A DNA stretch of 25,666 nt from Candidatus Aminicenantes bacterium. GTDB taxonomy: Bacteria > Acidobacteriota > Aminicenantia > Aminicenantales > Aminicenantaceae. The notes beneath the pieces are model-generated. The model was not told the origin of the DNA. It ran no database searches and was given only the letters and a program-made list of their open reading frames with translations. Positions 1,856 to 25,666 of this stretch are shown one piece after another. The stretch is from NCBI GenBank assembly GCA_030617525.1, contig JAUWVG010000001.1, positions 1-25,666 on the forward strand, written 5' to 3'. Each line of letters starts with the position of its first letter. Position 1 is the first letter of the stretch. A program made the position numbers and the translations under genes.

Positions 1856-3925
1856 TTATTTATTGTCTTTTTTCGTGGGAAGGAAGTTTTCCACCAGCCA
1901 GTATTCAACTTTTCCTTGCTTCCTCTTTGCATAAGCGATCTTTTTACCGTCGGGAGAGAAATCAGGTGAAAATCCTTCAATATTCATCATTTTAATCTCC
2001 CCTCCGTCGGAAGGAACTGAATATATTTGCTCTTTGTTCTTTGTAAGCTTTGAGAAAATAATCGTCTTCCCATCTGGTGACCAACTCAAATGGGTGCCAC
2101 CCCCTTTCATTTTCTCAGTAATCGACCCGGGTTCACCATCGGGAAATTCACAAACCCAAATCTCCTCAGACTCTTTACCTTCATTATCGGCAAACCAATC
2201 TATAGAATGAAAAGCCAGTCGTTTTCCGTCCGGCGACCAACGAGGGAATCTAAAACTCTGGCCGCTTTTCTCAATCAGCGTAATTCTCTGAGGTGCTCCG
2301 CCCTTAAATGGTATCACGTAGATATCTTTTTCAAATGTTCTTGCGCCCTCTATAGTATTTCCTTCTTTGGAGCCGATGTAATCAAAGGCGATATAAGCTC
2401 CATCGGGTGATACATCACATTTTTCAACCCACATATCGAAGCCAAATTCCAATTTTTGCGGCACTCCTCCTTCGACAGGAACTGTCCAGATGCCTCGATT
2501 ACCATAACCAATAAAGCCTCCAAATATTAGCTCTTTTCCACCTGGCAGCCATGAGGGTCTTGTAATATATCGGCTTTCATTCGGATTAGACACACTTATC
2601 GTAAGTTTTCTAGCTTCTCCTCCTTCTGTTGGTATCATCAATAAATCCGCTGCATCCCGAAAAGAGATGAATGCGATCTGCCGGCCATCCGGAGACCAAC
2701 GGGGATGTCTTTCTGGAGCCATGATGTTTGTGAGTTGAGTTTCTTTTCCTGTTTCGAGATCTTTAACAAAAATATTAGATCCGACTATACTCATGGAAAT
2801 TCCAATCTTTCCTTCTTTTACCCAGTTGTAAAAAGTGTTCCGCGAAGTAAGCCCCCGGGAAACTTGAATGGGCTCCCCCTCAGGATGTCCATCCGGAGAA
2901 ATTCTTATCACCCAAATTTCACTGGATCCACTTCTTGCGGAATAAAAGGAAATCCACTGCCCATCGAATGACCATTTAGGCCAACTGTCCGGAACGGGAT
3001 GATTTGTGACCTGAATTGATTTCCCACCTTTCAAAGGCATTGTGTAAATATCGTCATGAAATTCATAGGCTAAGAATTTACCGTCAGGTGATAAAGTCAG
3101 GAGTGAGAAATCTTCCCCAGTCTTTAGATCCGCATATTTAAAGATGTCTTTCCATTCTCCTCCTGAAACGGGAATGGCGCACAGACCTCTCTTTGACACC
3201 TCGCAGAGTATCATTTTACTGTCCGATGTCCATCCAGTAGGCCAGGCATATTTACCATCTTTTATGAAGTCTGAATCGGACTCAATGAGAGCCCTGGGGT
3301 CTCCTCCTTTTATGTGGACGACATACAGGCCGTTTAAAACATCAAGATAGGCAATTGTCTCACTGTCCGGCGACCAGAAACACCAATATTTAAAACCCGG
3401 AGTTTTTGTGAGACGTGTCTCTTTACCGCTTGCTATCTCTCTCATCCAGATGTCGTCTTCTTCCCCTACCAAGGCCAACTTTTTGCCATCCGGAGAAATG
3501 AAGCCGTAGGCTTTCTCCGTGCTCTCGTAGATCTTTGTAACGATGTGTTCTTCAACTCCTTTTTCGACCAGCTCTTTTGCTTTCAGCAGAACAGACAGTT
3601 TCTCTTTTGCCATTTTGACAGCTTCAGTTTGCTCTGGATAATTTTCTACAACATTCTGGTAAGCCTTTTGCGCTTCCTTCAGCCCCATTTTTTCATAACA
3701 GAGACCGATATAAAGCTGAGATTGGGCAGCGTATTGCCGCTCGTCCGGATATTTTTCTAAAATTTCACTGAAAAGTTTGATGGCCTCCTGGAGATCTCCC
3801 TTTGTCTCCATAGTGAATTTGGCTTTTTCGAAAAGCACTTTATGGTCCTGTGAATTCTGAAATCCGAAACCCACAGATAGAGCCAAAAGAACCACAAAGA
3901 GAAAAAGAGTCTTCTTACTGCACAT
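1856..3925 (-). CDS. P2: exported TPR + PD40/TolB-like beta-propeller protein (689 aa)
   Basis: Signal-like N-terminus MCSKKTLFLFVVLLALSVGFG; TPR helices (GDLQEAIKLFSEILEKYP, AQLYIGLCYEKMG-like); repeated WSPDG/SPDG motifs; ends YWLVENFLPTKKDNK. GGAGG 7 nt before ATG 3925 is preferred over the track start at 3955. Confidence 0.9.
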   Translation of the reverse strand: MCSKKTLFLFVVLLALSVGFGFQNSQDHKVLFEKAKFTMETKGDLQEAIKLFSEILEKYPDERQYAAQSQLYIGLCYEKMGLKEAQKAYQNVVENYPEQTEAVKMAKEKLSVLLKAKELVEKGVEEHIVTKIYESTEKAYGFISPDGKKLALVGEEDDIWMREIASGKETRLTKTPGFKYWCFWSPDSETIAYLDVLNGLYVVHIKGGDPRALIESDSDFIKDGKYAWPTGWTSDSKMILCEVSKRGLCAIPVSGGEWKDIFKYADLKTGEDFSLLTLSPDGKFLAYEFHDDIYTMPLKGGKSIQVTNHPVPDSWPKWSFDGQWISFYSARSGSSEIWVIRISPDGHPEGEPIQVSRGLTSRNTFYNWVKEGKIGISMSIVGSNIFVKDLETGKETQLTNIMAPERHPRWSPDGRQIAFISFRDAADLLMIPTEGGEARKLTISVSNPNESRYITRPSWLPGGKELIFGGFIGYGNRGIWTVPVEGGVPQKLEFGFDMWVEKCDVSPDGAYIAFDYIGSKEGNTIEGARTFEKDIYVIPFKGGAPQRITLIEKSGQSFRFPRWSPDGKRLAFHSIDWFADNEGKESEEIWVCEFPDGEPGSITEKMKGGGTHLSWSPDGKTIIFSKLTKNKEQIYSVPSDGGEIKMMNIEGFSPDFSPDGKKIAYAKRKQGKVEYWLVENFLPTKKDNK

Positions 3926-3963
3926 GATGTGACCTCCTGCCGGTGATTTTTTCATCTTCCAGC

Positions 3964-4026
3964 AATATAGCCATTTCCTAAGCTGATGTTGTCAAACAAA
4001 AGTCAAAGAATGTAAAAGATTGTCAT
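3964..4026 (-). promoter_or_regulatory. P2 promoter: four phased TT(G/T)AC(A/T) repeats plus -10
   Basis: Minus strand ATGACA (4026-4021), TTTACA (4016-4011), TTGACT (4006-4001), TTGACA (3995-3990); periods 10, 10, 11; TATATT (3969-3964) 20 bp after the last repeat. Confidence 0.7.
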
Positions 4027-4712
4027 TTCCCAAGGAAACGATATCCTTCCCCGTAGACCGAAAGAATGTACTTAGGTCGGGATGGATCCTCTTCGACTTT
4101 TTTCCTCAATTTCAGGATATGATTGTCGATAGTCCGGGTGGTTGGAAATTTCTCATAACCCCAGATCTTGTCGAGAAGCACATCCCTTTTCACCACTTCT
4201 CCCTTGTGAGCGATAAAATATTTAAGAATCTCGGCCTCAAGGGACGTCAAATCCGACTCCTTCCCTCTCCGTCTGATCTTAAAGAAGGTAAAATCGATTT
4301 CCAGATCTTCCAGGCGATAGATATCAGGAACTCTTTTATTCTCCCGCGTCTCCCTCCGGAGATGGGCTTTGATCCGGGCCAGGAGCTCGCGGATGCTGAA
4401 GGGTTTGGTCATATAGTCGTCGGCACCGATCTCGAGTCCTACCACTTTATCCACTTCTTCTCCCTTGGCTGTGAGCATAATGATGGGGGTACTGATATTC
4501 TTCTTTCTCAACTCCCGGCATACCTCCAGTCCGTCCATTTTTGGAAGCATAATGTCCAGGATAATCAAATCCGGGATTTCTTCCTGTGCTTTCAAAAGAC
4601 CTTTCGAACCGTCATCAGCCCAGATCACTTCATATCCCTCATCGATGAAGTTGAGTCTCAGCCCTTTCACAAGATCTTGTTCGTCTTCGATAATGAGAAT
4701 TTTCTTTTTCAT
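4023..4712 (-). CDS. RR2: OmpR/PhoB-family response regulator (229 aa)
   Basis: Receiver ILIIEDE...LIILDIMLPKMDG...LTAK...GADDYMTKPF; winged helix RTIDNHILKLRKK...SVYGEGY. Confidence 0.97.
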   Translation of the reverse strand: MKKKILIIEDEQDLVKGLRLNFIDEGYEVIWADDGSKGLLKAQEEIPDLIILDIMLPKMDGLEVCRELRKKNISTPIIMLTAKGEEVDKVVGLEIGADDYMTKPFSIRELLARIKAHLRRETRENKRVPDIYRLEDLEIDFTFFKIRRRGKESDLTSLEAEILKYFIAHKGEVVKRDVLLDKIWGYEKFPTTRTIDNHILKLRKKVEEDPSRPKYILSVYGEGYRFLGK

Positions 4713-4716
4713 TGCC

Positions 4717-6816
4717 CTAATCCTCTAATGTTTCGGAAACCGGAATGTACACGGAAAAAACAGAACCCTTTTCCGGCTCGCTGTCTACACAAATCTCTCC
4801 GCCATGCGCCTCGACTATATGTTTGACCAAGGTCAATCCCAAACCGCTTCCCTTACTCTCAGAGGTCGTCCGATTCTGCAGGCGGTAAAATCTCTCAAAA
4901 ATCCTCGATCTAGCCTCAGGGGAAATCCCAATTCCACGGTCAGCAACTTGGAATCCGATACAATCATCCTTCCTGTAGACCGTTACTCTCACCTCTTTTT
5001 TCTCAGGGGAAAACTTCATGGCATTGCTCAGCAGATTGATCAGCACACTGGCTATGGCCTCCTTATCAAAAACAATATCAGGAAGGTCAGAGGAAATCTC
5101 TTCTACAATTGAAAACCCCTTCTTTTCAAGATGGTAGCGGTAGGATTCTAAAGTATTCTGGATAACATTAGCCAGGTTTCCCTTTTTAAAGTCAAACTCT
5201 TTCCTGCCCATCTCAATCCTGGAAAAATCGAGGATATTGTTGATCATATGGGATAATCGCTCGCTCTCTTTGGTGATGATCTCATAGGCTTCGCGCCTGT
5301 CTTTATCGGATAGATTTTCCTTCCGCTGGAGGGTCTCACCGTAGAGTCGGATCAATGTCAGAGGTGTCTTCAGCTCGTGAGAAACATTATGAACAAATTC
5401 CGTTTTAAGCTGCGTTGTTTCTGTTTCTCTGGATACATCGCGGACAATCAGCAGAACACCTATAAACATAAGGACGATGATGACACCAAGCAGGATCCCG
5501 TAGAAGAACTTCTCACGTCGAGCGGTTTTCTGCAGGTCATGGAAAGCATCCAAAGAAGCGATAAGCTTCCATGGCAGGAGAATATTCCGGAAGGACAGGG
5601 ACAGAGAATCCTTTGAGATCCCCCCCTCCTGTTCAGGGGATGTAATTCCGGTTTTTTCATCCAGGACAGACAGCAGAAGCCCTGAATCCTCTGAGATATC
5701 CTTTAATAATTCAGGCAGAACTTCTGACTTCAATAAATCCAAATCCCACACAAAACCTCCGAAAAATGTTTCGCCCGATTCCGTTGGAGGAAGAATACGA
5801 TAGGATATGAGCTGCAGATTCCCATTTGACGAAGTCAAGAATCGATCGGACTGGGATGTCTCTCCACTCCCATAAACACCTCTTCTCTCTCGAATCCTTG
5901 GAACAACATCGTTATTCAGGAAATCGATAATCTGCAATTCAAGGAGAAAGGATGATGGTAGGGCAATCAGGTTTTTATATTTTTCCCGCAATTCCGGAAA
6001 TTTCTGGTTTTCAAACGCTGGAACTAGAAGGGAATCTATTTCGGAAATGAAAAATCTAACTGAAGGAGAGTTCATAGGCCAATCTCCGTTCCACAGTTTT
6101 TTATAGGCATCGAGGAGTGTTTCTAATCCCTCTTCTTCTTTATTCTGATCTTTATGAATATCATATAGTTGAATCGACGCCACAAGGCCGTAGGGATGTC
6201 CAACCTTATTCCTCAGCTGCCCATAGTCCCGGGCTAGTTTATCGTAGGTGTCCCTGGCTCTATCGAAGTTTTTGGACAAGAGGAACGATCGGGCCAATCC
6301 TTCAAGAGAGAAGGCCTGATTCTGTCTTGATGTCGCAGCCTCAAAACTTTTCTGATAGTCTTCAGTCGCCTTCACATAATCCTTCAAGGAAAATTCGTAT
6401 CGACCAGCCCTCGAAAACAAGGTCTCAAACCGAGGTTCTGACAACGCCAAATCGATGGAATCAATTGATAATTCGAAGGATAAATATTTCGGGAACACGA
6501 TCTTATAATCCTCATCAAGGATGAAGTCTCCTCTTGCTAATTCTGTTGAATTCTCCAGGGTAGAAAATTTTTCCGGCCTGAGGGCCTGTTTCTCATACTC
6601 GAAAAGCCTGTCCTCGAGGGATTGGAGAGCGGCCTGACCTGAGGTCCAGAGACTGGACTCAAGAAGCCTGCTGACAGATTCCAGTCTCTTGGCAAAAGTG
6701 CTGAAACTCAGATACCCGACGATCAGGGTGGGAAGAAAGATAGCCAAGAGAAAAATGACAATAGTTTTCCTCTTGTGAATCATCCGCGGGAAAAACGGTT
6801 TTTTCGCTGACTTCAA
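4717..6816 (-). CDS. HK2: membrane sensor histidine kinase with TPR-like extracytoplasmic domain
   Basis: Two TM segments; H-box VSHELKTPL; N-box NLLSNAMKFS; DRGIGI, FERFYR, GSGLGL. The track start 6843 lies at the likely transcription start; TTG 6816 has GGAG 5 nt upstream and ATG 6783 is also possible. Confidence 0.95.
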   Translation of the reverse strand: MKSAKKPFFPRMIHKRKTIVIFLLAIFLPTLIVGYLSFSTFAKRLESVSRLLESSLWTSGQAALQSLEDRLFEYEKQALRPEKFSTLENSTELARGDFILDEDYKIVFPKYLSFELSIDSIDLALSEPRFETLFSRAGRYEFSLKDYVKATEDYQKSFEAATSRQNQAFSLEGLARSFLLSKNFDRARDTYDKLARDYGQLRNKVGHPYGLVASIQLYDIHKDQNKEEEGLETLLDAYKKLWNGDWPMNSPSVRFFISEIDSLLVPAFENQKFPELREKYKNLIALPSSFLLELQIIDFLNNDVVPRIRERRGVYGSGETSQSDRFLTSSNGNLQLISYRILPPTESGETFFGGFVWDLDLLKSEVLPELLKDISEDSGLLLSVLDEKTGITSPEQEGGISKDSLSLSFRNILLPWKLIASLDAFHDLQKTARREKFFYGILLGVIIVLMFIGVLLIVRDVSRETETTQLKTEFVHNVSHELKTPLTLIRLYGETLQRKENLSDKDRREAYEIITKESERLSHMINNILDFSRIEMGRKEFDFKKGNLANVIQNTLESYRYHLEKKGFSIVEEISSDLPDIVFDKEAIASVLINLLSNAMKFSPEKKEVRVTVYRKDDCIGFQVADRGIGISPEARSRIFERFYRLQNRTTSESKGSGLGLTLVKHIVEAHGGEICVDSEPEKGSVFSVYIPVSETLED

Positions 6817-6847
6817 CTTTGCTCCAAAATAAGCAGATATCAACTCA

Positions 6848-6889
6848 ATTATATCGAAGAAAACCCTTGAAATGTCAAAATAATGTAAA
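6848..6889 (-). promoter_or_regulatory. HK2 promoter: TTTACA-N5-TTGACA plus TATAAT
   Basis: TTTACA (6889-6884), TTGACA (6878-6873), 19-bp spacer, TATAAT (6853-6848); TTTTACATT.TTT is shared with the P2 promoter. Confidence 0.7.
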
Positions 6890-6917
6890 AAAAAGGACGG
6901 CCCACGAATGAGCTGTC
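6887..6917 (-). terminator. Intrinsic terminator after P3 (degenerate copy of the shared hairpin)
   Basis: Minus strand GACAGCTC-attcgt-GGGCCGTC (one mismatch, one G-U) followed by C and T8. Confidence 0.7.
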
Positions 6918-6940
6918 ATCAGCAACCGCCCTTTTGCGGC

Positions 6941-9061
6941 TTATTTCTTATCTTTAATTTTGGGCAGGAAGTTTTCCATTACCCAGACTTCGTCGTTGGG
7001 AGTTGTAAAACCGAATGAAGAGAAGGATAAATGATGGCCATCAGGATGAACGCTTAAGTGGCGGAAATTTGCCATTTTTAGGTTCAATTCTTGGGCCCTT
7101 TTCTCTTCCAAAGAATACATCCACAAATTCCACTCCTCGTTTAGTGGATGACTGCTTGAATAGAAAAAGATCCTTTTTCCATCAACACTCCAGGCGGGAG
7201 TGATTACAGTCACCCCTGATGTTTCGAAATTGTGAAGTTCCTGGGGTTCGCCCCCTGATATAGGAATGATCCGCATACTTCTTTTTTTTCCTCTGTTCAA
7301 AAAGACCAGCATTCTTCCGTCAGGGGAAATATCGATGTCCTTGGCATCATCTGGTGACCCCTGAAGTTTTTCATTCAAACCGGTTTTTAGGTCGAGGGCA
7401 AAGATCCAGGATTTTTTAGTACGGGGGTTGCCTTTGGTATAGAAAAGTGTTTGGCCGTCAATTGCCCATCTGTGTGAATAGAATTCTTCATTTTCTTCAA
7501 TTTGGACTAGAGGAGAAATCTTTTCAGAATTAACATCCATCTCGTATATTCCCTCCAAACCATTGCTATCTGTCCCCTCCCATGTAATCGCCTTTCCATC
7601 CGGCCGCCATTGAGGATAATTTAGCTCGAGGGATCCATGATCAAGCTCTCGGATTCCTCCATTCTCGAGTGAATAGAGACGAATAGATCTATTCATGGGC
7701 TGGATTCTTCGGAGAAAGCTGTAAGCCAAGTATTTGCCATCCGGCGAGTAGTCCGGGTAGGAATTGTGACCCTCACTATATCGTATTTCCACTTTTGGAG
7801 ACTCCAGGACCAGGCCGGATAAAGGATCGATCTTAACTACATATACATCATTCAGGGCTGAGCCGTTATAGCCGAAATAGAACTGATTGCGGAGAGTACA
7901 CCCAATAGGGAAAGCCGGACCGATATTCGGCTTCACAAGACTGGGTGTCCCATTTGCCTGTCCTCCCTTGACCGGAACAATCCAAACTCCCCGAACCCCG
8001 GTCCTCTCACTCCCGAACAGAAGATACTTCCCATCCGAGGTCCAATCGAATACATAGTCAAAAGAAGGGTGGGATATCAACTGTTCCTCGTATGTCCCGT
8101 CCGAAGAGAGAAGAAAGATATCCCGATTATTTGGATTTTGATCCCGGCAATCGTCAAAAGCAATTGTTCTTCCATCCGGAGAAATAACAAATCCCCAAGG
8201 GTGACCTTGGTAAAATTTACGTTTAAATGTTTTCAGGATTCTGAAGTTTCCATCGACAACAGAAAGAAAGCCAATAACAAATGTTTGCCCTCTTTCTTCA
8301 TAAAAACCAATGAGCATACGTTTTCCATCCGGGTGCCAATCAAAGGGCTGGATGTATCCAAAATCGTGATTTTTATACAGAATCCTGGGTTTTTGCTCTT
8401 CTAAACCGACTGTATAGATATCAAACGTGTCACCTTCAGGATCATACCAACTATATAAGACTTGATTGCCATCGGGTGACCACTTCGAATACAGGGCGAA
8501 TTCTTGAGATTTCAGCCAGGACCCTTTGTTCGTAAGACGACGGGATTTCCCATCTGCCAATTCACGAATGGCCAGGTCTCCGGTATCCCAGTCCGTAAAG
8601 GAAAGATATTTGCCATCGGGTGAAATATCCCCTGAAATGGCGGCTTCGCGTCCCGACAAGATTTTTTGTATCTTTAATTCCTTCGCCTTATCCTCAATGA
8701 CAGATTGGGCCTCTAAAAGAAGTGACAATTTTTCTCTTGCGATTTTCACAGCTTCAGTTTGATCCGGATACTTTTCTAGAACGGCCTGGAAAGCCTTCTG
8801 AGCATCACTCATCCCCAATTTCTGAAGACAGAGACCAATCTGGAGTTGGGCTTTGGCCGCAATCTCCCGTTCTTTTGGAAAGTCCTTAACGATCTTCTGA
8901 AAAACTTCAATTGCTCCTTCCAGATCCCCGCGGGTTTCTTGAAGATAGACCGCTCTTTCAAACAGGGCCTTGGCCGATTCTTGTTTAACAAGTCCAGAAA
9001 AAAGGAGAGAGGCTCCCATTACCAAAATTACTACCATTAAAAAAACTTTTTTTTGATTCAT
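6941..9061 (-). CDS. P3: exported TPR + PD40/TolB-like beta-propeller protein (706 aa)
   Basis: MNQKKVFLMVVILVMGASLLFSG signal-like N-terminus; TPR GDLEGAIEVFQKIVKDFP...AQLQIGLCLQKLG; SPDG repeats; ends VWVMENFLPKIKDKK. GGAGG 7 nt before ATG 9061 (track start 9085). Confidence 0.9.
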   Translation of the reverse strand: MNQKKVFLMVVILVMGASLLFSGLVKQESAKALFERAVYLQETRGDLEGAIEVFQKIVKDFPKEREIAAKAQLQIGLCLQKLGMSDAQKAFQAVLEKYPDQTEAVKIAREKLSLLLEAQSVIEDKAKELKIQKILSGREAAISGDISPDGKYLSFTDWDTGDLAIRELADGKSRRLTNKGSWLKSQEFALYSKWSPDGNQVLYSWYDPEGDTFDIYTVGLEEQKPRILYKNHDFGYIQPFDWHPDGKRMLIGFYEERGQTFVIGFLSVVDGNFRILKTFKRKFYQGHPWGFVISPDGRTIAFDDCRDQNPNNRDIFLLSSDGTYEEQLISHPSFDYVFDWTSDGKYLLFGSERTGVRGVWIVPVKGGQANGTPSLVKPNIGPAFPIGCTLRNQFYFGYNGSALNDVYVVKIDPLSGLVLESPKVEIRYSEGHNSYPDYSPDGKYLAYSFLRRIQPMNRSIRLYSLENGGIRELDHGSLELNYPQWRPDGKAITWEGTDSNGLEGIYEMDVNSEKISPLVQIEENEEFYSHRWAIDGQTLFYTKGNPRTKKSWIFALDLKTGLNEKLQGSPDDAKDIDISPDGRMLVFLNRGKKRSMRIIPISGGEPQELHNFETSGVTVITPAWSVDGKRIFFYSSSHPLNEEWNLWMYSLEEKRAQELNLKMANFRHLSVHPDGHHLSFSSFGFTTPNDEVWVMENFLPKIKDKK

Positions 9062-9171
9062 TTTTGTTCCTCCATCATGTGACATTCCAATAAAATAAAC
9101 ATAACGGAGGATGTTTGTGTTGAGGAATTATGGAAAATTTGTGAAAAACCTTCCACATGGAGACACTTCAT
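9058..9171 (-). CDS. Possible 37-aa small ORF between RR3 and P3
   Basis: AAGGAGG (9188-9182) 10 nt before ATG 9171; MKCLHVEGFSQIFHNSSTQTSSVMFILLECHMMEEQK; its TGA overlaps the P3 ATG (ATGA). It also crosses the putative P3 promoter. Confidence 0.25.
   Translation of the reverse strand: MKCLHVEGFSQIFHNSSTQTSSVMFILLECHMMEEQK
9092..9148 (-). promoter_or_regulatory. P3 promoter: phased TTCC(A/T)(C/T)A repeats plus -10
   Basis: TTTCCATAATTCCTCAACACAAA (9136-9114), 19/23 identical to the HK3 upstream motif; extra upstream TTTTCACA; TATTTT (9097-9092) 22 bp after CTCAA. Confidence 0.65.
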
Positions 9172-9187
9172 GTTTTTAATTCCTCCT

Positions 9188-9874
9188 TTAATCTACAAAT
9201 TTATAACCGATACTGTGGACACTTTTGATATGTTTGGGTTTAGAAGGATTATCCTCGATCTTCTTCCGGATGTGAGCCATGTGGCTGTCCACGGTTCTGT
9301 GTGAAACCGCCAGGTTGTCGGCACCCCAAACACTATCCAGAAATTCATCTCGGCTTATGACCTGTCCTTTTCTATCAATCAACAACTTAAGAATCTTTAG
9401 TTCCAGGGGAGTTAAACGCAAATCTAAACCATCCTTACGGGATTCATATTTTTGAAAATCCAATTCCACACTCCCAAATCTATAGAGTTTTATTTCATTT
9501 TGATAATCCTCAACCCGGCGAAGCAAAGCCTTGATCCGGGCGGATAGCTCCTTGAGACTAAAGGGCTTAGTGACATAATCATCTGCACCCAACTCCAATC
9601 CCAAAACTTTGTCCACTTCCTCATCTTTGACAGTCAACATCAAAATCGGAGACGTCACTCCCTCCTGGCGCACTCTCTTACAGATCTCAAAACCATCCAT
9701 CAGGGGAAGCATCACGTCCAGGATTAAAAGATCCGGCTTTGATGCTAAGGCCAACTCCAATCCCTTTTCTCCATCGGCGGCTGTTGTCACATCATATCCC
9801 TGCTCAGAAAGTGCATCCTGGAGGATCACTCGGATGCCGGCATCATCTTCTACAATTAGAATTGTTTTTTTCAA
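9188..9874 (-). CDS. RR3: OmpR/PhoB-family response regulator (228 aa)
   Basis: TTG start after GGAGGTGAG; ILIVEDD, LLILDVMLPLMDG, GADDYVTKPF; RTVDSHMAHIRKK, SVHSIGY. Confidence 0.97.
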   Translation of the reverse strand: MKKTILIVEDDAGIRVILQDALSEQGYDVTTAADGEKGLELALASKPDLLILDVMLPLMDGFEICKRVRQEGVTSPILMLTVKDEEVDKVLGLELGADDYVTKPFSLKELSARIKALLRRVEDYQNEIKLYRFGSVELDFQKYESRKDGLDLRLTPLELKILKLLIDRKGQVISRDEFLDSVWGADNLAVSHRTVDSHMAHIRKKIEDNPSKPKHIKSVHSIGYKFVD

Positions 9875-9877
9875 AAC

Positions 9878-12088: not shown

Positions 12089-12096
12089 TCCAAATA

Positions 12097-12129
12097 AGGA
12101 AAGGGACGACCCATAATTGAGCCGTCCCT
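12097..12129 (-). terminator. Intrinsic terminator after P4
   Basis: Stem AGGGACGGC/GTCGTCCCT (12129-12121 / 12110-12102, one G-U) followed by TTCCTTATTT. Confidence 0.8.
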
Positions 12130-12149
12130 ATCAATCCCCCTTTACGGGC

Positions 12150-16054: not shown

Positions 16055-16120
16055 ATAATAATGTTTTTTTTCCGGTTTGTGGTTAAGGTTAAACAGAGTT
16101 TGCATTGAGTTTCAGTGGAG
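16055..16120 (-). promoter_or_regulatory. P4 promoter: four CTCAA-like repeats at exact 11-bp period plus -10
   Basis: CTCCA (16120-16116), CTCAA (16109-16105), CTCTG (16098-16094), CTTAA (16087-16083); TATTAT (16060-16055) 22 bp downstream. Confidence 0.65.
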
Positions 16121-16126
16121 ATAATT

Positions 16127-16807
16127 CTATCCCTCGAATCTATGCCCAACTCCTCTGATGCTGACAAGGTACCGGGGTTGAGAGGGATCCGGTTCGATCT
16201 TTTTCCGGAGATGAACGATGTGGGAATCAATGGTCCGGGGAGAGATGATGGCATCACCCCATGCCTCATCGAGAAGGTTGTCCCTAGTCACGACCTCCCC
16301 TTTACGTTCGATAAAGAATTTCAGAAGCTTAAATTCCAGGGCTGTCAGATGGATTTTTTCTCCGGCTTTTAAAACTTCATGGCGCTTAAAATCAACCGAG
16401 ACCTCTCCAAATTCAAAGACATCCCCGGTCTCCTTCTCTATTCCGGTCCGCCGCAGGATCGCTTTCACACGGGCGACCATCTCTCGTGATCCCACTGGCT
16501 TTGTGACATAGTCATCCGCGCCCATTTCCAGTCCCATAACTTTATCCATCTCCTCTGTCTTTGCCGCTGTGAGCATAATAATGGGCGTCCTCACATTTTC
16601 CTCTCTCAGTTTCTTGCAGATTTCAAAACCGGTGAGTTCCGGGAGCAGGATATCGAGAATGATGAGATTAAACTCCTTGCTTTTAGCCAACATGTAGCCC
16701 TCTTTCCCATTATCGGCAACGGCAACTTCATATCCCTCAAATTCCATGTCGTCCTTCAATCCCATCAGGATGGTTTCGTCATCCTCTACGATTAATATTT
16801 TAACCAT
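16127..16807 (-). CDS. RR4: OmpR/PhoB-family response regulator (226 aa)
   Basis: ILIVEDD, LIILDILLPELTG, GADDYVTKPV; RTIDSHIVHLRKK, SIRGVGH; overlaps the HK4 stop by 8 bp. Confidence 0.97.
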   Translation of the reverse strand: MVKILIVEDDETILMGLKDDMEFEGYEVAVADNGKEGYMLAKSKEFNLIILDILLPELTGFEICKKLREENVRTPIIMLTAAKTEEMDKVMGLEMGADDYVTKPVGSREMVARVKAILRRTGIEKETGDVFEFGEVSVDFKRHEVLKAGEKIHLTALEFKLLKFFIERKGEVVTRDNLLDEAWGDAIISPRTIDSHIVHLRKKIEPDPSQPRYLVSIRGVGHRFEG

Positions 16808-18938
16808 GATTTTTTCCTTTTTGTGAAATCGGAAGTTTGAGTATCACTCTGGTTCCCTTGTCCAAATCACTCTCTAAAATTACTTCGCCTCCATGGGCTT
16901 TGACAATATGGTCAACAAGAGTGAGGCCAATTCCGCTTCCCTCGATGTTTTTTTGGGTGGGATCGACAGATCGATAAAATTTTTCGAACACTTTTTTTAG
17001 TTCATCTTTGCTGATTCCGACACCCATATCCTGAACCTCCAATAAAACAACTTCTCCCTCGAAGCGAGCTCGGAAATATATCAATGGATCCTTTCCCGAA
17101 TATTTGACAGCATTGTCAAGCAGATTAAACAGGGCCCTGGAGATCCCTTCTTTGTCTGCATGAATAATTGGCAAATGGTCAGATATCTCACATTCCAAAG
17201 TCACATGTTTATCAGCAACATATTCCTCGAACCTCTGAATAACATCCTTGACCAGTTCCCCAACACCCATCTCTTCAAAAAGGTATTTCTTCATCCCGGC
17301 CTCTATTTTTGAAAAATCGAGCATATTCTCGATAAGCCGGCTTAGACGTTCACTTTCTTTGCTGATCTTTCCATAATAAATGCTTTTCTTATCCTCTCCC
17401 TTCACTCGCCCTGAATCGAGCATCTCGGAGAGATAGCGGATGGACATTAAGGGTGTTCTGAATTCATGGGATACAGTAGAGACAAATTCCGATTTTAACC
17501 TGGCCAACTCCAACTCTTTGGCAGTACTCTTGATCGCCATAAATCCACCGAAAAATAAGACGGCCATTACAACCACAACGATAAGGATATAGACATTTCG
17601 CCTCAGGTTGTACTGCCGATCCGAAGCATTCGGATATTTCTGGAGTATGTGGATTTGCCAGGGAGGGAAATCCTGATCGAATCCCAAAACAATAGGCGAG
17701 CTGAGACCGTCCGCTAAAGAATCCAAAACCTCTTCTCCTAAAACAATGTGGCCGTCGGAATCGACAATTTGAAGCAACCAGTCCTCAGGGATCGGGAGTT
17801 TATCCAGAATTTGTGGGAATCGTTCTTCAATCAGAACGGAGTTGTCTATACGGATTCCCAGGATAATGTCATTTTGGACAGTTGCAGCAGTGATGAGAAA
17901 CAAATTATCACCTAAGATCTCAGAAAAACGGGAAAATTCATTGGCCTTGCTGTTAAGCCCGAATAATCTGGCTTGAACAAGGGGAATGATCTTTTCTATC
18001 AAATCCTCCTCCGCTGTCAATTCTCCGAGCTTGGCATCTGCCTGCTTTTCGAATTCATCCCATCGATTCTTGAAATCCACATCCTCCGATGCACCCCTCC
18101 ATTCAGTTTTCCATGTCTCCCCCATTTTATTTATAATGCTTCGATAAAACTGAAACTGTGAATTGTCCAGGGACCATTTAGGGCCCTCCAGGCGGCTGTA
18201 GAATTCCAATATAATTTGTCCTGTTTTTTCAGGCTCAGTCTTTTGAGTAATGGTACCCATCTGAAAAAAAGCGATGATCCCAAGGGGCACGCCTTCAGAA
18301 CTCATCTCATTGGAAAAATCTTCAAGGATTGTATTGTAGGTGTTTATAGCTTGGTTGAGATTTCCCAATTTTTTGTAGCATCTAGCAAGGCGATTTAAAA
18401 CCAGAGCCTTGGAAGAATCATCCTGAAACGAGTTTGCTAATGTTTTATAGGACTGAATGGCCAGAGACAAATTTTGAGTTACAAGCTCAGCCGATTCCGC
18501 CGTTTTAAAGAGTCCGAAACTCTCAATTTTTCCTAGATTGAGTCCGGCAAGACGCCTCCTTTCTGATGTGAGAAACAGAGGGCTCTTGAGAGGAAAAACC
18601 AATTCGCTGTCCGCCCCGGCCAGAAAGATATCACCAATGAGAGCTTCAGTTTCAGCGCCCAGACAGCAGGCCTCTGACAATTTTTGTATGTCCTGCTGTG
18701 TTCGAGCATCTGATACAGCAGTCGTTATCTTCTCTTCAATCTCCGAAAAGAGGGAGTCGATTTCACCGGTCAAAAGAGAGGCATATCTCTGCTGCTCTCT
18801 TTCAAGGTCCCTCTCTCGTGCAAGTTTTTCCCTCTCTGCTTCCCGGACAGCTAGAGTGGTCAAAAAAAAGCCTAAAACTAGAGTGAATCCGGCAAGTAAA
18901 ACAACCGATCTTCTCTGCCAATTCAGTTTAAAGACCAT
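16800..18938 (-). CDS. HK4: membrane sensor histidine kinase with TPR-like extracytoplasmic domain (712 aa)
   Basis: Two TM segments; AESAELVTQNLSLAIQSY...LNRLARCYKK; VSHEFRTPL; NLLDNAVKYS; DMGVGI; FEKFYR; GSGIGL. Confidence 0.96.
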   Translation of the reverse strand: MVFKLNWQRRSVVLLAGFTLVLGFFLTTLAVREAEREKLARERDLEREQQRYASLLTGEIDSLFSEIEEKITTAVSDARTQQDIQKLSEACCLGAETEALIGDIFLAGADSELVFPLKSPLFLTSERRRLAGLNLGKIESFGLFKTAESAELVTQNLSLAIQSYKTLANSFQDDSSKALVLNRLARCYKKLGNLNQAINTYNTILEDFSNEMSSEGVPLGIIAFFQMGTITQKTEPEKTGQIILEFYSRLEGPKWSLDNSQFQFYRSIINKMGETWKTEWRGASEDVDFKNRWDEFEKQADAKLGELTAEEDLIEKIIPLVQARLFGLNSKANEFSRFSEILGDNLFLITAATVQNDIILGIRIDNSVLIEERFPQILDKLPIPEDWLLQIVDSDGHIVLGEEVLDSLADGLSSPIVLGFDQDFPPWQIHILQKYPNASDRQYNLRRNVYILIVVVVMAVLFFGGFMAIKSTAKELELARLKSEFVSTVSHEFRTPLMSIRYLSEMLDSGRVKGEDKKSIYYGKISKESERLSRLIENMLDFSKIEAGMKKYLFEEMGVGELVKDVIQRFEEYVADKHVTLECEISDHLPIIHADKEGISRALFNLLDNAVKYSGKDPLIYFRARFEGEVVLLEVQDMGVGISKDELKKVFEKFYRSVDPTQKNIEGSGIGLTLVDHIVKAHGGEVILESDLDKGTRVILKLPISQKGKNHG

Positions 18939-19067
18939 TTTTAAAAAGCTTTCAGACTTATTCTTAACCTTCCAATTATTTTTCCTCAGCCCCTAAGTCG
19001 TACAGAGAAAACAGTATAACGTAAGTATCAAGATGTCAATTCTGTCCATCCTCCAATTTGTTTCCTC

Positions 19068-19120: not shown

Positions 19121-19196
19121 ATTTTTTTTCGGAAGGCTTTCGCCTTCGACCGCCATTTCAAAGATTATGGATACGAGATCCATCCTCCCTTATAAT

Positions 19197-19229
19197 AGAA
19201 AGGGGACGGTCCCCGAAAGAACCGTCCCC
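19197..19229 (-). terminator. Intrinsic terminator after P5
   Basis: Perfect 9-bp stem GGGGACGGT (19202-19210)/ACCGTCCCC (19221-19229), then TTTCTATT on the minus strand. Confidence 0.8.
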
Positions 19230-19250
19230 AGCAATACCCCTTTTAAGGAT

Positions 19251-21419: not shown

Positions 21420-21439
21420 CTAACTTTACCTCTACCATC

Positions 21440-21493
21440 AATATAACGATTAAAAATCAAATCCGTATCCAGGAAGTGTCCAGAGTTTGTCAA
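21440..21493 (-). promoter_or_regulatory. P5 promoter: three T(T/G)GA(C/T)A repeats at 11-bp period plus -10
   Basis: TTGACA (21493-21488), TGGACA (21482-21477), TGGATA (21471-21466); TATATT (21445-21440) 20 bp downstream, the same geometry as P2. Confidence 0.7.
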
Positions 21494-21498
21494 GATAT

Positions 21499-22173
21499 TC
21501 AGCCTTCAAAACGGTATCCCCTGCCCCTCACGCTGAGGATATACTGGGGTTTTTCAGGCATAGGTTCGATTTTCTTGCGCAGGTTGAGGATGTGAGTGTC
21601 CACCACCCTTTCGGTCACAATAACGGCAGGTCCCCAGGCCGCATCGATCAATTGATCGCGGCTCAAAAGCCGGCCGCGCCTGCGGACAAATGTCTCCAGG
21701 AGGCGGAATTCCAGTGCGCTCAAATTGACAGGCTGGCCGCTGATGCGGACTTCTCCGCGGTCAAAGTCGACTTCGCATTCTCCAAATTGAAATATACCGA
21801 GGGAATCATCCGTGATCCTGCGGAGCAGGGCCTGGATCCGGGCACGCAGTTCCCGGGGACTAAAGGGTTTTGTGATGTAGTCGTCCGCGCCCAACTCTAA
21901 GCCAAGAATCTTTTCGGCTTCATGCGTTTTGGCTGTCAACATGATAATCGGTGTTTTAATTCCCTCACTGCGGAGCTCCCGGCAGACTTCGAATCCATCT
22001 TTTTTCGGAAGCATGAGGTCAAGGATTATCAAGTCCCATTGAGAGTCCTTTCCTAAAAACAAAGCCCTCTCCCCATCACCCACGGTTTCGATCTGGTATC
22101 CATGGCTGGATAGGTCCTCCTCCAGGCCGAGAGCAATGTCTTTGTCATCTTCGACTATCAGTATCTTTGGCAA
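21499..22173 (-). CDS. RR5: OmpR/PhoB-family response regulator (224 aa)
   Basis: Start reassigned from 22260 to TTG 22173 (GGAGG about 8 nt upstream, 4 bp after the HK5 stop); ILIVEDD, LIILDLMLPKKDG, GADDYITKPF; RVVDTHILNLRKK, SVRGRGY. Confidence 0.96.
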   Translation of the reverse strand: MPKILIVEDDKDIALGLEEDLSSHGYQIETVGDGERALFLGKDSQWDLIILDLMLPKKDGFEVCRELRSEGIKTPIIMLTAKTHEAEKILGLELGADDYITKPFSPRELRARIQALLRRITDDSLGIFQFGECEVDFDRGEVRISGQPVNLSALEFRLLETFVRRRGRLLSRDQLIDAAWGPAVIVTERVVDTHILNLRKKIEPMPEKPQYILSVRGRGYRFEG

Positions 22174-22177
22174 ATGT

Positions 22178-24139
22178 TTATCCTCCAGCAGGCAGTTGTA
22201 TTGTAAAGGTACTGCCCTGCCCGGACTCGCTTTCGATTGATATTCGCCCTCCATGGGCATCTACGATATGTTTGACCACGGCCAGTCCGATCCCTGTCCC
22301 TTTGATTCCAAGGTCGCTGGCGTTTGCCCCCCGGACAAACTTCCGGAATATCCGTGACCTCTCGGATGTAGGGATTCCAAATCCCTGATCCCGAACCCGA
22401 ATTGTCACTGGATCGCCTTCCTCAACTTTAACATTAATTTTCTTTTTCTCCCCTGAATATTTCACTGCATTATCCAGAAGATTCCACAGGGCCTGAACAA
22501 GCGCTTCACGGTCACCATCGACTATTGGGCCCTTATCAGGAACGACACATTTAATTACAGTGCTATCATGTCCGGTCTCTTGCAGAAATTCTTCAACAAC
22601 GGTTTTAGCCAACAAGCCGGCATCCATCGGTTCAATTTGATAGGGACGTGCACCCGCCTCCATCCGGCCAAAATCCAGCAGGGATTCCACCAGTCTGGAA
22701 AGTCGACTGGTCGCACGGGCCTGTGCCTGGTAGAAGACGCTTCGCTTTTCTGCTGGAAGGGAATCGTCTTCATTGAGCATCTCTGTGAACTGCCGCATAG
22801 AAGTTAAAGGTGTCCTAAACTCATGAGAGACAGAAGAGACAAAATCCGCTTGGAGTCGGGCGGCAGCCAATTCCCTGGAGACTGCACGGCTGATAAGATA
22901 GCTCAACGTGATAACAAGTAGAGTCAGTATTCCCAATCCCGCTATCATCAGCCTCCGGCGCTGGGCGAACTGGCTCAAATCCGCCTCAAGGTTTGCATTG
23001 ACAAGATTGATGTCCCAGGGCAGTCCGGATACCGAAGCGGTACGGGAAGAAAAGGGAATATCTCCCTCTCGTTTACTGCCGTAGATTAAAGTTCCATCCA
23101 ACTCATACAAACTCACTCTAACCGAACTGAAATCCTCACTATTAAAAAGTGGATCATACCACTGACTTTGCTGATAGAGAGGACCTGAAGCAAAGGCTGT
23201 TATTTCATCATTCGACTTTTGCCAAAGGACAGTGACAGAAATACCATAAAGTGAAAGTGATCTGCGACCTGCTGTCCCCTGTTCCATGTTATTCATAGAT
23301 TCCCTATTCTCCCACAGCCAGACAACGGCATCAGCTAGAGCTTTAGGCCCAAAATCCGTATCAGGCTCCCGTCCCAGCCACTCTTTTGCCAGATCTGTAT
23401 AATAAATGTAAGAGGCACGGTCAAGACGCCAGCGCTTACCTATCAAATCTTCAAACAGACTCTCGGCCTCCTTCTGAAGCTGATCCAAGCTGCCCATTTT
23501 TTTTAGAAGAGAACAGCGGGCACGGCGTGCCACAAGATCAGCGGGAACACCTGAAATTGTCACCTGAGAACCTGAAGCAGAATTATTGAGTTTCTTGTAT
23601 ATATCAAGAGCATCATCCAGCCGGCCGGCCTTTCTGAGGTTTCTAGCCAGTCGAAGTTTTGCTGCCCCCGCTGTAAAGGGATCTCGAGAATTGGATAAAG
23701 GACGCAGGAGTGTGATAGCTCTACTATAATCATTATTCTGGAATTCGGCTCTTTCAGCATCTGTAAAAAGCTGGGATGGAGCTTCATTCCCGGATGGCAC
23801 GATCGGATAGAAAAGCAGTGTTTTTTCCGGCTGAACACGGATCCCCTCAGAATTCATAAAAATCCAGACAAAATCTTCTTTTTGGGCAAAGTCTGTGGTC
23901 AGGGGATTTGCCAATTTCTGCTCTTCGTCCGAAAGGACTTGCTCTATGGCAGCAATGAATCGGTCTGTGATAGCCTCTCGTTTTTCTTCAAGTTGATTCA
24001 CTTCCAGTATTCGGTCCTGCTTCATAAGACGCAAACCCATCCAAATCAGAGCAAAAACAGATATCACTGCAGCGGCCAGGAATAGAAATGTGGTCTTTTG
24101 AGTGATATGCCCCCAGAATCTCCGTGTTTTCACTGTCAA
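22178..24139 (-). CDS. HK5: membrane sensor histidine kinase with TPR-like extracytoplasmic domain (about 653 aa; start uncertain)
   Basis: Two TM segments; AERAEFQNNDYSRAITL...KLRLARNLRK; VSHEFRTPL; NLLDNAVKYS; DQGFGI; GTGIGL. Confidence 0.95.
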   Translation of the reverse strand: MTVKTRRFWGHITQKTTFLFLAAAVISVFALIWMGLRLMKQDRILEVNQLEEKREAITDRFIAAIEQVLSDEEQKLANPLTTDFAQKEDFVWIFMNSEGIRVQPEKTLLFYPIVPSGNEAPSQLFTDAERAEFQNNDYSRAITLLRPLSNSRDPFTAGAAKLRLARNLRKAGRLDDALDIYKKLNNSASGSQVTISGVPADLVARRARCSLLKKMGSLDQLQKEAESLFEDLIGKRWRLDRASYIYYTDLAKEWLGREPDTDFGPKALADAVVWLWENRESMNNMEQGTAGRRSLSLYGISVTVLWQKSNDEITAFASGPLYQQSQWYDPLFNSEDFSSVRVSLYELDGTLIYGSKREGDIPFSSRTASVSGLPWDINLVNANLEADLSQFAQRRRLMIAGLGILTLLVITLSYLISRAVSRELAAARLQADFVSSVSHEFRTPLTSMRQFTEMLNEDDSLPAEKRSVFYQAQARATSRLSRLVESLLDFGRMEAGARPYQIEPMDAGLLAKTVVEEFLQETGHDSTVIKCVVPDKGPIVDGDREALVQALWNLLDNAVKYSGEKKKINVKVEEGDPVTIRVRDQGFGIPTSERSRIFRKFVRGANASDLGIKGTGIGLAVVKHIVDAHGGRISIESESGQGSTFTIQLPAGG

Positions 24140-24191
24140 ATCATCTTTTCTCTACTCTATCCAACACGGCTAAACTTTTCAATCAAGAAAA

Positions 24192-24219
24192 TGTCAAGAC
24201 TCTGTCCAGATTGTGTCAA
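24192..24219 (-). promoter_or_regulatory. HK5 upstream: three T(T/G)GACA repeats at 11-bp period
   Basis: TTGACA (24219-24214), TGGACA (24208-24203), TTGACA (24197-24192); TTGACAcaaTCTGGACA is 15/17 identical to the P5 promoter. No clear -10 at the matching distance. Confidence 0.65.
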
Positions 24220-24249
24220 AAAAAAGGACGGCCCATGGTCGAGCCGTCC
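24218..24249 (-). terminator. Intrinsic terminator after P6
   Basis: Stem GGACGGC (24226-24232)/GCCGTCC (24243-24249) followed by T8 on the minus strand. Confidence 0.85.
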
Positions 24250-24279
24250 CCATCTCCCCCCCTTTTAAGGGCTTATTTT

Positions 24280-25666
24280 TTATCTTTGTTTTTTGGGCAG
24301 GAAGTTTTCCACAATCCAGAATTCATAGCCGCTGCCGTGCCATCTCGAATAAGCAATCCTTGTGCCGTCGGGAGAATACTTCAGACTTCTCCCGAGAATA
24401 TTCATTTTCTCTGGTTTTCCTCCGTCGGCGGCAACTCTTAATATTTCAAAATCCATACCTTCGATTCGATTCTCGTAAACAATGTGCTTTCCGTCCGGCG
24501 CCCAACAGAAAGTGTATTCTCCTCCGTTCGTAACCAACTTAGGTTCACTGCCGTCGGCATTCATGGTCCAGATGGAGTACGTATCCTCCTTTCCGTATCG
24601 CGCGTAGTCGAAAACAATGTATGCGATCTTGGCTCCGTCGGGAGACCATTCACAATGACTGTACCAAACGCCTTTTTTATCGGCGGGAAGGATTGTCCGC
24701 GGCGTTCCTCCTTCTGCTACAACGATACCGATGCCTGAACGCCGCTCTCTCAAATATTCAGCGGAATTGGCGAATTTTTTCGGCTCTATAGTGTAGTTGA
24801 AAAGAATCAATTTTCTGTCAGGAGACCAATCGACAGATCCCAAATCTCCTGCCAATTTCATTAATTCTCTGGGTTCTCCTCCGCCAGGCGGTATTTCCGC
24901 AATGACCGTCTGATTGGCTACCCCTGCGCTGTAGGTAACGAAGGTGCTGCCATCGGGCCCTAAGTAATAACCATCATAGCTATCCTTATAATTATCAACA
25001 AGACTGGGCTCTCCCCCTTCTGCGGGAATTGACCAAACCCGAAACTTGTTAAGGGGTCTTCGGTAATCCGAAGCAAATAGGATCGTTTTACCATCCGGTG
25101 ACCAACGCGGACTGTAATTACCGCGGGGAAACTGAGTCAGCTGAATTTCATCGCTACCATCGGGATTGGCGGTATATATATGCTGGGTTCGAAAGGCAGC
25201 GGAGAATCCCACACCTCCGTCCATTGTCCAATTCCCGCCCAGAATAAGTGCATGATTCGTCGCTTTGAACGGATTTCCCTCCGGTTTGCCCTCAGAGGAT
25301 ACCTTAATGGCCCAGAACTGGGGTGTCTCTTCGCCGTAAGAGACGAATCCGATCCAGCGTCCGTCAAAAGACCATTGGGGCGACCTGTCTACGGCAGGAT
25401 TGGAGGTGATACGGGTGGTTTCTCCTCCCGTGCTGGACATCACACAAATATCGGTATTTCCCTTTTGAGTTGTCGTATAGGCAATCCAACGGCCGTTCGG
25501 GGATAACGTCATGTCCTGATGTCTCCGCGCCTCTTTCGGCTCGTCAAAAGTGAAGATGTCCTCCTTCTCTCCTCCAGTCATTGGGATGGAAAACAGTCCT
25601 TTGGAAGGGATTTGAAAAATGATTTTCTTGCTGTCCTCCGACCACCCTCTCAGGGCGATGGAATCC
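24280..25666 (-). CDS. P6: C-terminal part of a PD40/TolB-like propeller protein (5' end outside the window)
   Basis: The frame stays open from the track start (25581) to the window edge (DSIALRGWSEDSKKIIFQIPSKGLFSIPMTGGE...); SPDG repeats; ends FWIVENFLPKKQR; closest to P2. Confidence 0.9.
   Translation of the reverse strand, partial: DSIALRGWSEDSKKIIFQIPSKGLFSIPMTGGEKEDIFTFDEPKEARRHQDMTLSPNGRWIAYTTTQKGNTDICVMSSTGGETTRITSNPAVDRSPQWSFDGRWIGFVSYGEETPQFWAIKVSSEGKPEGNPFKATNHALILGGNWTMDGGVGFSAAFRTQHIYTANPDGSDEIQLTQFPRGNYSPRWSPDGKTILFASDYRRPLNKFRVWSIPAEGGEPSLVDNYKDSYDGYYLGPDGSTFVTYSAGVANQTVIAEIPPGGGEPRELMKLAGDLGSVDWSPDRKLILFNYTIEPKKFANSAEYLRERRSGIGIVVAEGGTPRTILPADKKGVWYSHCEWSPDGAKIAYIVFDYARYGKEDTYSIWTMNADGSEPKLVTNGGEYTFCWAPDGKHIVYENRIEGMDFEILRVAADGGKPEKMNILGRSLKYSPDGTRIAYSRWHGSGYEFWIVENFLPKKQR

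Follow-up and report, generated by a model that had tools for sequence, protein, structure and literature searches.

The 25,666-nucleotide stretch of DNA analysed here (contig JAUWVG010000001.1 of assembly GCA_030617525.1; hereafter the window, always at its full length) carries a tandem array of a three-gene unit. In each unit, the genes for a membrane-bound histidine kinase (HK), an OmpR-family response regulator (RR) and an exported protein with tetratricopeptide repeats (TPR) and PD40 propellers, designated P, follow one another in this order. Our data argue for a regulatory model in which each unit is probably an autoregulated two-component system that, apart from itself, acts mainly and probably solely on the exported protein whose gene lies directly downstream. 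They also indicate that P has a mosaic descent, its N-terminal part travelling with the kinase and regulator while its propellers are exchanged.

The window is the longest contig of a 2.9-Mb metagenome-assembled genome (MAG) that is 78% complete; a cold-seep metagenome run covers its DNA evenly at a depth of about 13x, and relatives carry the labels Candidatus Aminicenantes and other Acidobacteriota. The host is an uncultured cold-seep sediment bacterium (Aminicenantes). All long open reading frames (ORFs) lie on the minus strand, where the ORF list and Pfam place four complete HK-RR-P units, with an incomplete P running into the right edge and an incomplete HK into the left; the four complete repeats were confirmed by Pfam and NCBIfam scans of the window proteins. 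A first-pass annotation, made from the letters of the DNA, had described four intact HK-RR-P-terminator repeats with partial units at both edges on a single strand, strongly diverged sequences within one architecture, and intact phosphorelay motifs, and all three descriptions are borne out by the ORF list and by Pfam and terminator scans. The fragment of the fifth kinase, HK5 (3-929), lies outside the interval that this annotation had assigned to the array (1856-25666). The kinases have about 650-710 amino acids, the regulators about 226-253 and the P proteins about 700, with P2 reaching 1291; identity among the paralogues of the window is about 49% for RR, 25-30% for HK and 27-39% for P. The features are as follows.

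24280-25666, minus strand: P0, 3' part of an exported propeller protein whose unit runs off the right edge (PD40 repeats; 33% identity to P4; WIVENFLP motif at its end)
24224-24251, minus strand: hairpin terminator after P0, part of a conserved 3' element
24183-24210, minus strand: unit-1 direct repeats (TCTKGACA-type, period about 11 bp) before HK1
22178-24139, minus strand: HK1, sensor kinase, short sensor type, kinase clade A (Pfam, boxes, sensor tree)
21499-22260, minus strand: RR1, OmpR-family regulator (Pfam, receiver residues)
21468-21495, minus strand: second site of the unit-1 direct repeats, before P1
19251-21419, minus strand: P1, with signal peptide, TPR head and two propellers (Pfam, hydropathy, NCBIfam)
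19202-19229, minus strand: terminator after P1
19107-19121, minus strand: unit-2 motif TCCACTSAAACTCAA before HK2
16800-18938, minus strand: HK2, kinase clade B (Pfam, sensor tree)
16127-16807, minus strand: RR2 (Pfam, receiver residues)
16105-16119, minus strand: unit-2 motif before P2
12150-16025, minus strand: P2, 1291 amino acids, a single TPR head followed by two complete double-propeller cassettes
13888-13910, minus strand: internal copy of the 3'-end motif within P2
12102-12129, minus strand: terminator after P2
12065-12088, minus strand: unit-3 motif before HK3
9878-12013, minus strand: HK3, kinase clade E, sensor domain modelled (Pfam, AlphaFold2, Foldseek)
9188-9874, minus strand: RR3 (Pfam, receiver residues)
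9113-9136, minus strand: unit-3 motif before P3
6941-9085, minus strand: P3, protein modelled (Pfam, predicted structure, Foldseek)
6893-6920, minus strand: terminator-like hairpin with a weaker stem after P3
6873-6890, minus strand: unit-4 motif (TTTKAC...TTTGACA) before HK4
4717-6843, minus strand: HK4, kinase clade D (Pfam, sensor tree)
4023-4712, minus strand: RR4 (Pfam, receiver residues)
3990-4007, minus strand: unit-4 motif before P4
1856-3955, minus strand: P4 (Pfam, NCBIfam)
1803-1834, minus strand: terminator after P4
1105-1604, minus strand: ParE/ribbon-helix-helix toxin-antitoxin pair between P4 and the HK5 promoter
1078-1100, minus strand: direct repeats (TCTTCACACAA twice) before HK5
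3-929, minus strand: HK5, 5' part of a fifth kinase, kinase clade C type (81% DNA identity to contig C484 of the same MAG)
1790-1860, 6880-6945, 12090-12150, 19190-19250 and 24215-24280, minus strand: 3' non-coding element

Read on the coding strand, the spacers of the array contain direct repeats, with a period of about 10-11 bp and a sequence particular to each unit, at two sites per unit, one between the preceding terminator and HK and another between RR and P. When the best ungapped 22-mer shared by an HK-upstream and a P-upstream region was sought within the window, the cognate pair ranked first in all four units (17, 17, 18 and 16 matches, with at most 15 in any other pair). Among 52 units from other genomes, cognate pairs averaged 15.35 matches versus 14.06 +/- 0.17 in 20,000 permutations, a control in which differences in genome composition remain. 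The composite motifs of units 1-4 were each recovered from the 2.9-Mb assembly at their own two sites only, in a scan that allowed one further mismatch, or two in the case of units 1 and 3. The repeats occupy the place expected for a -35 box. Activators of the PhoB type work in this way, and the placement of the repeats thus suggests positive autoregulation of the unit together with activation of P. A terminator scan detected a hairpin followed by a run of T residues after P0, P1, P2 and P4, and the same element with a weaker stem after P3; hairpin terminators are found in the window after P genes only.

The linkage of the three genes is a general trait of the family. HK sensor, HK core, RR and P were mapped by tblastn on 88 loci that had been fetched with P as the query; among the 71 P genes from other Acidobacteriota genomes with at least 3.3 kb of upstream DNA, 65 are directly preceded by RR and HK on the same strand. 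The exceptions are P-P tandems, convergent orphans at the ends of arrays, an orphan pair beside unrelated genes (L060) and a receptor kinase gene (L013). Counted from the other side, RR-P is found directly downstream in all 14 loci fetched by the kinase sensor domain. Single units keep the order just as arrays do, and it persists in families as distant as Bryobacteraceae, Terriglobia and Aminicenantia; both HK-RR-P order and a terminator only after P are conserved across the Acidobacteriota. At least nine complete units (five of them on other contigs) and about four partial ones are present in this genome, and they account for about 12 of its 31 HisKA-type kinase hits; a complete Aminicenantes chromosome carries about eight P genes, three of which are spaced at 5.1-5.2 kb and two at 5.7 kb. 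The P family comprises at least 1736 clusters (E <= 1e-10), with a patchy distribution at E <= 1e-50 (24 of 301 sampled genomes of the phylum), and its members are named in the sources only as 'tetratricopeptide repeat protein', 'PD40 domain-containing protein' or 'Tol biopolymer transport system component'. The kinase sensor domain has 568 representatives (50% clusters, E <= 1e-30), of which a few are long generic TPR proteins and nearly all others are proteins of about 700 amino acids with the domain at residues 30-450. In several related genomes, the arrays (L028, L030, L031 and L038) close with a convergent P-like gene (about 14.2-16.0 kb, minus strand) that has neither a kinase nor a regulator of its own, and kinase-less P-P tandems occur in L060 and L083.

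All kinases of the window possess HisKA and HATPase_c domains with the H, N, G1, F and G2 boxes, and the motifs SHEF (in the H box), NLLDNA, DxGxGI and GxGLGL are present in each of them. A hydropathy scan reveals two hydrophobic segments per kinase with about 360-420 residues between them; the H box follows within about 20 residues of the membrane segment, and Pfam matched neither HAMP nor PAS domains in these proteins. The regulators combine Response_reg with Trans_reg_C and all retain the acidic pocket, the acceptor Asp, the Thr and the Lys, so RR is a complete OmpR/PhoB-type regulator and HK-RR is a classical two-component system, made up of a HisKA class I kinase and an OmpR/PhoB regulator. 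As a peculiarity of unit 1, the ORF of RR1 overlaps the 3' end of HK1 by 83 nt (22178-22260, minus strand), which places about 30 extra residues ahead of the receiver domain; since the same overlap recurs in the orthologous units L005, L031 and L050, this extension may be real.

The extracytoplasmic part of the kinase was modelled for HK3 with AlphaFold2 from a 34-row alignment (predicted local distance difference test, pLDDT, 83; predicted template modelling score, pTM, 0.77). The model comprises a long stalk helix and an array of helical repeats (model residues 110-254), together with a further long helix that leads into a five-to-seven-stranded alpha/beta domain, which adjoins the second membrane segment. 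Foldseek placed the sensor domains of KinD and CqsR first and many TPR proteins thereafter; the structures of the KinD and CqsR sensor domains are of the PDC/Cache type. The periplasmic domain of HK (about 420 amino acids) is accordingly predicted to combine a stalk helix with an array of about four TPRs and, next to the membrane, a Cache/PDC-like fold. The designation 'TPR-sensor kinase' in the first-pass annotation was hence correct as far as the TPR array is concerned and incomplete with respect to the Cache/PDC-like domain joined to it. Among the ten paralogous kinases of this genome, the conserved sensor positions fall within the first TPR helices and an FPPW motif just ahead of the second membrane segment; a look-up of the sensor in the ESM Atlas returned clusters of 'hypothetical protein' only.

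The P proteins of the window begin with a basic N-terminus, a hydrophobic segment and small residues at the likely cleavage sites, and no Cys lipobox was seen after the signal sequence in any of them. Pfam and NCBIfam detect weak TPR_6/YbgF-like repeats at the N-terminus and many PD40 repeats behind them. In the model of P3 (pLDDT 83), a TPR head of five helices is joined by a short linker of low confidence to two propellers, and the conserved sequence WVMENF forms the last strand of the second one. Its best structural matches in Foldseek are double-propeller proteins, tricorn protease and TolB. By sequence, the head of P matches CpoB and the second propeller matches TolB, and the propeller families that are hit comprise Tricorn_N, Tricorn_2nd (precomputed Pfam), DPPIV_N and Peptidase_S9_N. 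Pfam found no catalytic domain in P, and in the P3 model the protein stops at the last blade. P, which is predicted to be exported, is thus built from a signal peptide, a CpoB-like TPR head and two PD40 propellers of the tricorn/TolB kind. A homologous double propeller also occurs in a very different setting: locus L013, from a Solibacteraceae MAG, encodes (4777-7659, plus strand) a 960-amino-acid Hanks-type Ser/Thr kinase whose C-terminal double propeller is homologous to the body of P, with 25% identity over P3 residues 140-707. The L013 kinase represents a fused counterpart of the split arrangement seen in the window.

Trees built from 61 complete units (nine from this genome, 52 from other genomes) separate the descent of the two parts of P. 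The sensor tree falls into five deep, well-supported clades, A to E. When these kinase clades are used as labels, they change 4 times on the RR tree, which is the minimum, 5 times on the tree of the P TPR head (103 columns) and 26 times on the propeller tree; on the tree of whole P, 20 changes compare with a mean of 36.6 for shuffled labels. Approximately unbiased (AU) tests, which were set after the free tree had been seen, reject holding together the P proteins of kinase clade B (difference in log-likelihood, delta lnL, 573; p 1.5e-9) and those of kinase clade D (delta lnL 418; p 1.6e-5). Units with 84-95% identical regulators have P proteins whose identity lies anywhere between 30% and 94%. 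In three such pairs of orthologous units, the DNA is 0.8-0.97 identical from HK across RR and the spacer into P, where this level extends over the first 40-130 codons; identity then drops to 0.4-0.55 in the propellers and recovers within the last 150 nt. From binned protein identities, the 5' joint falls within P residues 60-130. The alignment of the second P2 module to P1 runs from residue 123 to the end and shows the same cassette boundaries; doubled P genes in a single ORF are also present in L039, L051 and L072. At the other end, a 23-nt word coding for WVMENFLP occurs in six copies in the window, where none is expected. Within-genome homogenisation of P was considered as the cause of the tree conflict and rejected, as P identity is 0.33 for pairs of different clades from the same genome versus 0.35 for pairs from different genomes.

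Collectively, the trees and identity profiles show that a single linked block, comprising HK, RR, the promoter region, the signal peptide and the TPR head, is passed on as a whole, and that the double-propeller body is an exchangeable, faster-evolving cassette that has been swapped repeatedly; the cassette is bounded by the end of the TPR region and the conserved WVMENFLP-coding 3' end. In six orthologous units without exchange, the ratio of nonsynonymous to synonymous substitution rates (dN/dS) is 0.34 for the sensor, 0.24 for the propellers, 0.15 for the TPR region of P, 0.14 for the kinase core and 0.12 for RR; the two periplasmic, presumably ligand-facing parts therefore evolve fastest. 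In six units of clade C (L028-L032 and L038), the synonymous rate itself (dS) is 0.67-0.69 in sensor and propeller versus 0.41-0.45 in kinase core and regulator, which hints at imported segments even in units that seem unexchanged.

These findings bear on the main proposals of the first-pass annotation. It had taken HK-RR-P for a dedicated, paralogously expanded unit, and the counts from the P side (65 of 71) and the HK side (14 of 14), together with the at least nine complete units in this genome, agree with this view; homologous kinases and P proteins that are usually unlinked in other genomes, which it had named as the sign to the contrary, were looked for, and the genes proved to be linked. 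Its assignment of P as the output of the pair fits the unit-specific repeats before both HK and P and the terminator after P alone. The partnership of each P with its own HK/RR pair applies to roughly the first 60-130 residues of the protein and not to the propeller body, which shows no co-descent with HK-RR. The mosaicism of P had escaped this earlier reading.

In the mechanism that we propose, a periplasmic cue would activate the kinase, and the phosphorylated regulator would bind the repeats at the -35 position in the manner of PhoB, thereby turning on both its own operon and P. P itself may serve as a periplasmic binding protein, with the conserved TPR head holding it to a constant partner and the variable propellers binding a variable ligand. 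Whether P in addition feeds back on its own kinase is a more tentative proposal, to which we give somewhat less than even credence; in a complex prediction with HK3 sensor residues 102-419 and mature P3, a control scored close to the pair, an outcome that counts neither for nor against such contact.

Several points weigh against this autoregulatory model. The function of P is assigned from its likeness to known folds alone. The motif patterns used in the genome-wide scan were derived from the sites themselves, so that the scan shows only that the assembled part of the genome holds no further site. A small within-locus control for operator sharing in the other genomes was not significant (12 versus 12 pairs, p 0.2), and three metatranscriptomes of the same study contained no contigs of the locus and no usable transcripts. 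Furthermore, breakpoints lie inside the TPR region as well as at its end, and linkage alone could keep the TPR head together with HK-RR.

A different account would make the unit a true three-component sensor, comparable to MtrAB-LpqB, QseEGF or ExoR-ChvG, with P as an indispensable co-sensor in the periplasm; the TPR head of P would dock on the TPR/Cache domain of the cognate kinase, the kinase would be switched when the propellers capture a ligand, and the induction of P would constitute a feedback loop. We regard this as possible, with the balance tilted against it. It draws support from precedents (PMC6075780, PMC12818412, PMC3460628), from a TPR head that tracks the kinase lineage almost perfectly while the propellers swap, from the protein-binding TPR array predicted in the periplasmic part of the kinase, from an apparent regulon that consists of the unit itself, and from the use of a homologous double propeller as the outer domain of the Hanks-type receptor kinase of L013. 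However, propellers have been replaced between units whose sensor domains are still 79-87% identical, so the sensor does not track the propellers; the breakpoints fall within the TPR head in some pairs, and linkage by itself explains the co-inheritance of the head. A more specific variant, which we consider rather doubtful, would view the units as plug-in periplasmic receptors: the constant TPR head would dock on the TPR/Cache domain of its own kinase, the double propeller would be an exchangeable ligand-recognition cassette, and recombination at the two fixed joints would re-aim the channel to a new ligand. If this were true, the dozen-channel array would be a diversifying repertoire for sensing the envelope or the environment.

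It is unlikely, in our judgement, that the units resemble polysaccharide utilisation loci, with a kinase that senses a small breakdown product via its Cache-like pocket, a P protein that captures the parent polymer or peptide, and propeller exchange as niche adaptation. The predicted Cache/PDC-like fold of the sensor, propellers of the same kind as those that gate peptides in tricorn, DPP-IV and prolyl-oligopeptidase, and the many paralogous units per genome would suit such a role; yet the units show no consistent linkage to a transporter, peptidase or glycosidase, and P has no catalytic domain. Far less probable still is mere neighbourhood, in which repeated duplication of a tandem block has kept HK-RR and P adjacent with no regulatory or functional link: tandem duplication is evident, but it would leave unaccounted for an order that persists in single units and arrays of distant families, unit-specific repeats common to the HK and P upstream regions, and a terminator 3' of P alone. 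A shifted register, in which each P is paired with the downstream kinase, would use the fact that every HK within an array also has a P upstream, but is hardly credible given the terminator and new promoter region that separate P from the next HK, the isolated HK-RR-P units without an upstream P (L008, L017 and L020, for instance) and the agreement of the TPR-head tree with the upstream kinase.

Against the background of described systems, the HK-RR-P unit belongs to an already known kind, that of a two-component pair with an exported accessory or target protein; new are the HK-RR-P family itself, its expansion into arrays and the behaviour of the propeller cassette. No named equivalent was found in NCBIfam, Pfam, PADLOC, Rfam or the full-text literature, a search that mostly excluded subscription journals, and this agrees with the initial impression that the system had not been described. 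NCBIfam holds no curated model that scores above its cut-off for HK, RR or P; PADLOC, which covers known anti-phage defence systems, gave no match for P3 and P4, and only generic ATPase and receiver matches for HK and RR.

The closest parallel in gene content is MtrA-MtrB-LpqB of the Actinobacteria, which has been termed a 'three-component system' and in which LpqB is thought to modulate the kinase from outside the cytoplasm (PMC12818412 and references therein). Here as there, an OmpR-family regulator, a membrane kinase and an exported protein containing a beta-propeller are encoded together. The gene order differs (RR-HK-LpqB versus HK-RR-P), and LpqB is a lipoprotein with GerMN and LpqB-propeller domains, whereas P combines a TPR head and two PD40 propellers and lacks a lipobox Cys. 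Pfam did not find GerMN in the P proteins of the window, Gmad1 was matched in P4 only and below threshold (19.7 versus 20.5 bits), and the NCBIfam models for MtrB and MtrA gave 127-144 bits (cut-off 450) and 195 bits (cut-off 300) with the HK and RR proteins of the window. MtrAB-LpqB is moreover single-copy and essential-like, in contrast to about 12 paralogues per genome for the unit described here, and no cassette exchange as in P is described for LpqB.

In the enterobacterial QseE-QseG-QseF system, kinase activity depends on an exported accessory protein that binds to the kinase's periplasmic loop (PMC6075780, PMC12691602). The three-gene operon with an exported accessory protein is a shared trait; QseG, however, is a small outer-membrane lipoprotein encoded between kinase and regulator, QseF is sigma-54 dependent, and the QseEGF operon is not autoregulated. 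In the Cpx system, the periplasmic repeat protein CpxP restrains the kinase to which it binds and is the most strongly induced target, and this output of CpxA/CpxR is also an input, a role that feedback by P would reproduce only hypothetically. ExoR of the Rhizobiales is a periplasmic repeat protein that binds and restrains the kinase of the ExoS(ChvG)/ChvI pair (PMC3460628). Both ExoR and CpxP differ from P in being small, single-copy and free of propellers; ExoR is unlinked to its kinase genes, and cpxP is divergent from cpxRA.

As for the domains of P, the second propeller is closest by sequence to that of TolB and the TPR head to the TPR domain of CpoB (YbgF), which recalls the Tol-Pal system; the P proteins nevertheless score only 116-167 bits with the TolB model TIGR02800 (cut-off 343) and 26-34 bits with the CpoB/YbgF model TIGR02795 (cut-off 90). 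Unlike TolB, P has two propellers preceded by a helical TPR region in place of the TolB N-terminal domain, and it is not encoded in a tol-pal operon. It also differs from tricorn protease and the S9 peptidases, as no catalytic (and no PDZ) domain follows the propellers. In PknD-like receptor Ser/Thr kinases, a PD40 propeller ectodomain is the input domain; the units of the window pair a histidine kinase with a propeller that is exported as a protein of its own.

A single uncharacterised module accounts for about two fifths of this genome's HisKA-type kinases; it recurs in several hundred sequence clusters from uncultured sediment and soil Acidobacteriota and would represent a large, unstudied class of envelope signalling. 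Its predicted wiring, with two promoters per unit and an operator at each, is clear and testable. With its mosaic P proteins, the module offers a naturally occurring case in which the exported partner of a signalling pair exchanges cassettes at the level of domains, and the paralogous regulator/operator pairs are candidate orthogonal parts as well as a natural data set for the DNA specificity of OmpR-family regulators.

The 3' ends of the P genes hold a further peculiarity. Every P stop codon is followed by a non-coding element of about 55 nt, consisting of a small CCC/GGG hairpin and then the terminator hairpin GGGACGGCTC...GGGCCGTCCC. The last 45 coding nt and the roughly 55 non-coding nt after each P have a mean identity of 73%, although the proteins are only 27-39% identical. 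The non-coding element is confined to near relatives (L001 and L004), and other genomes have recurrent 3' elements of their own. With no Rfam match in the window, it does not correspond to a known RNA; it may be a recombination arm or an RNA stability element.

The array is interrupted between P4 and HK5 by the toxin-antitoxin pair, whose ParE-family toxin has 90 amino acids (Pfam E 2e-12). The start of HK5 and the region upstream of it (window positions 52-1104) recur at 81% identity on contig C484 of the same MAG, where a full HK-RR-P unit follows; the alignment stops at window position 1104, and the C484 copy thus seems to lack the toxin-antitoxin pair. C484 was considered as a continuation of the window and ruled out, being an 81% identical copy; it represents either a second strain binned into the MAG or a recent duplicate. 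Finally, in one assembled contig of DNA run X1, 58 bp of the spacer between P1 and HK2 (18946-19005) are swapped for five other letters, a strain variant in the promoter region of unit 2.

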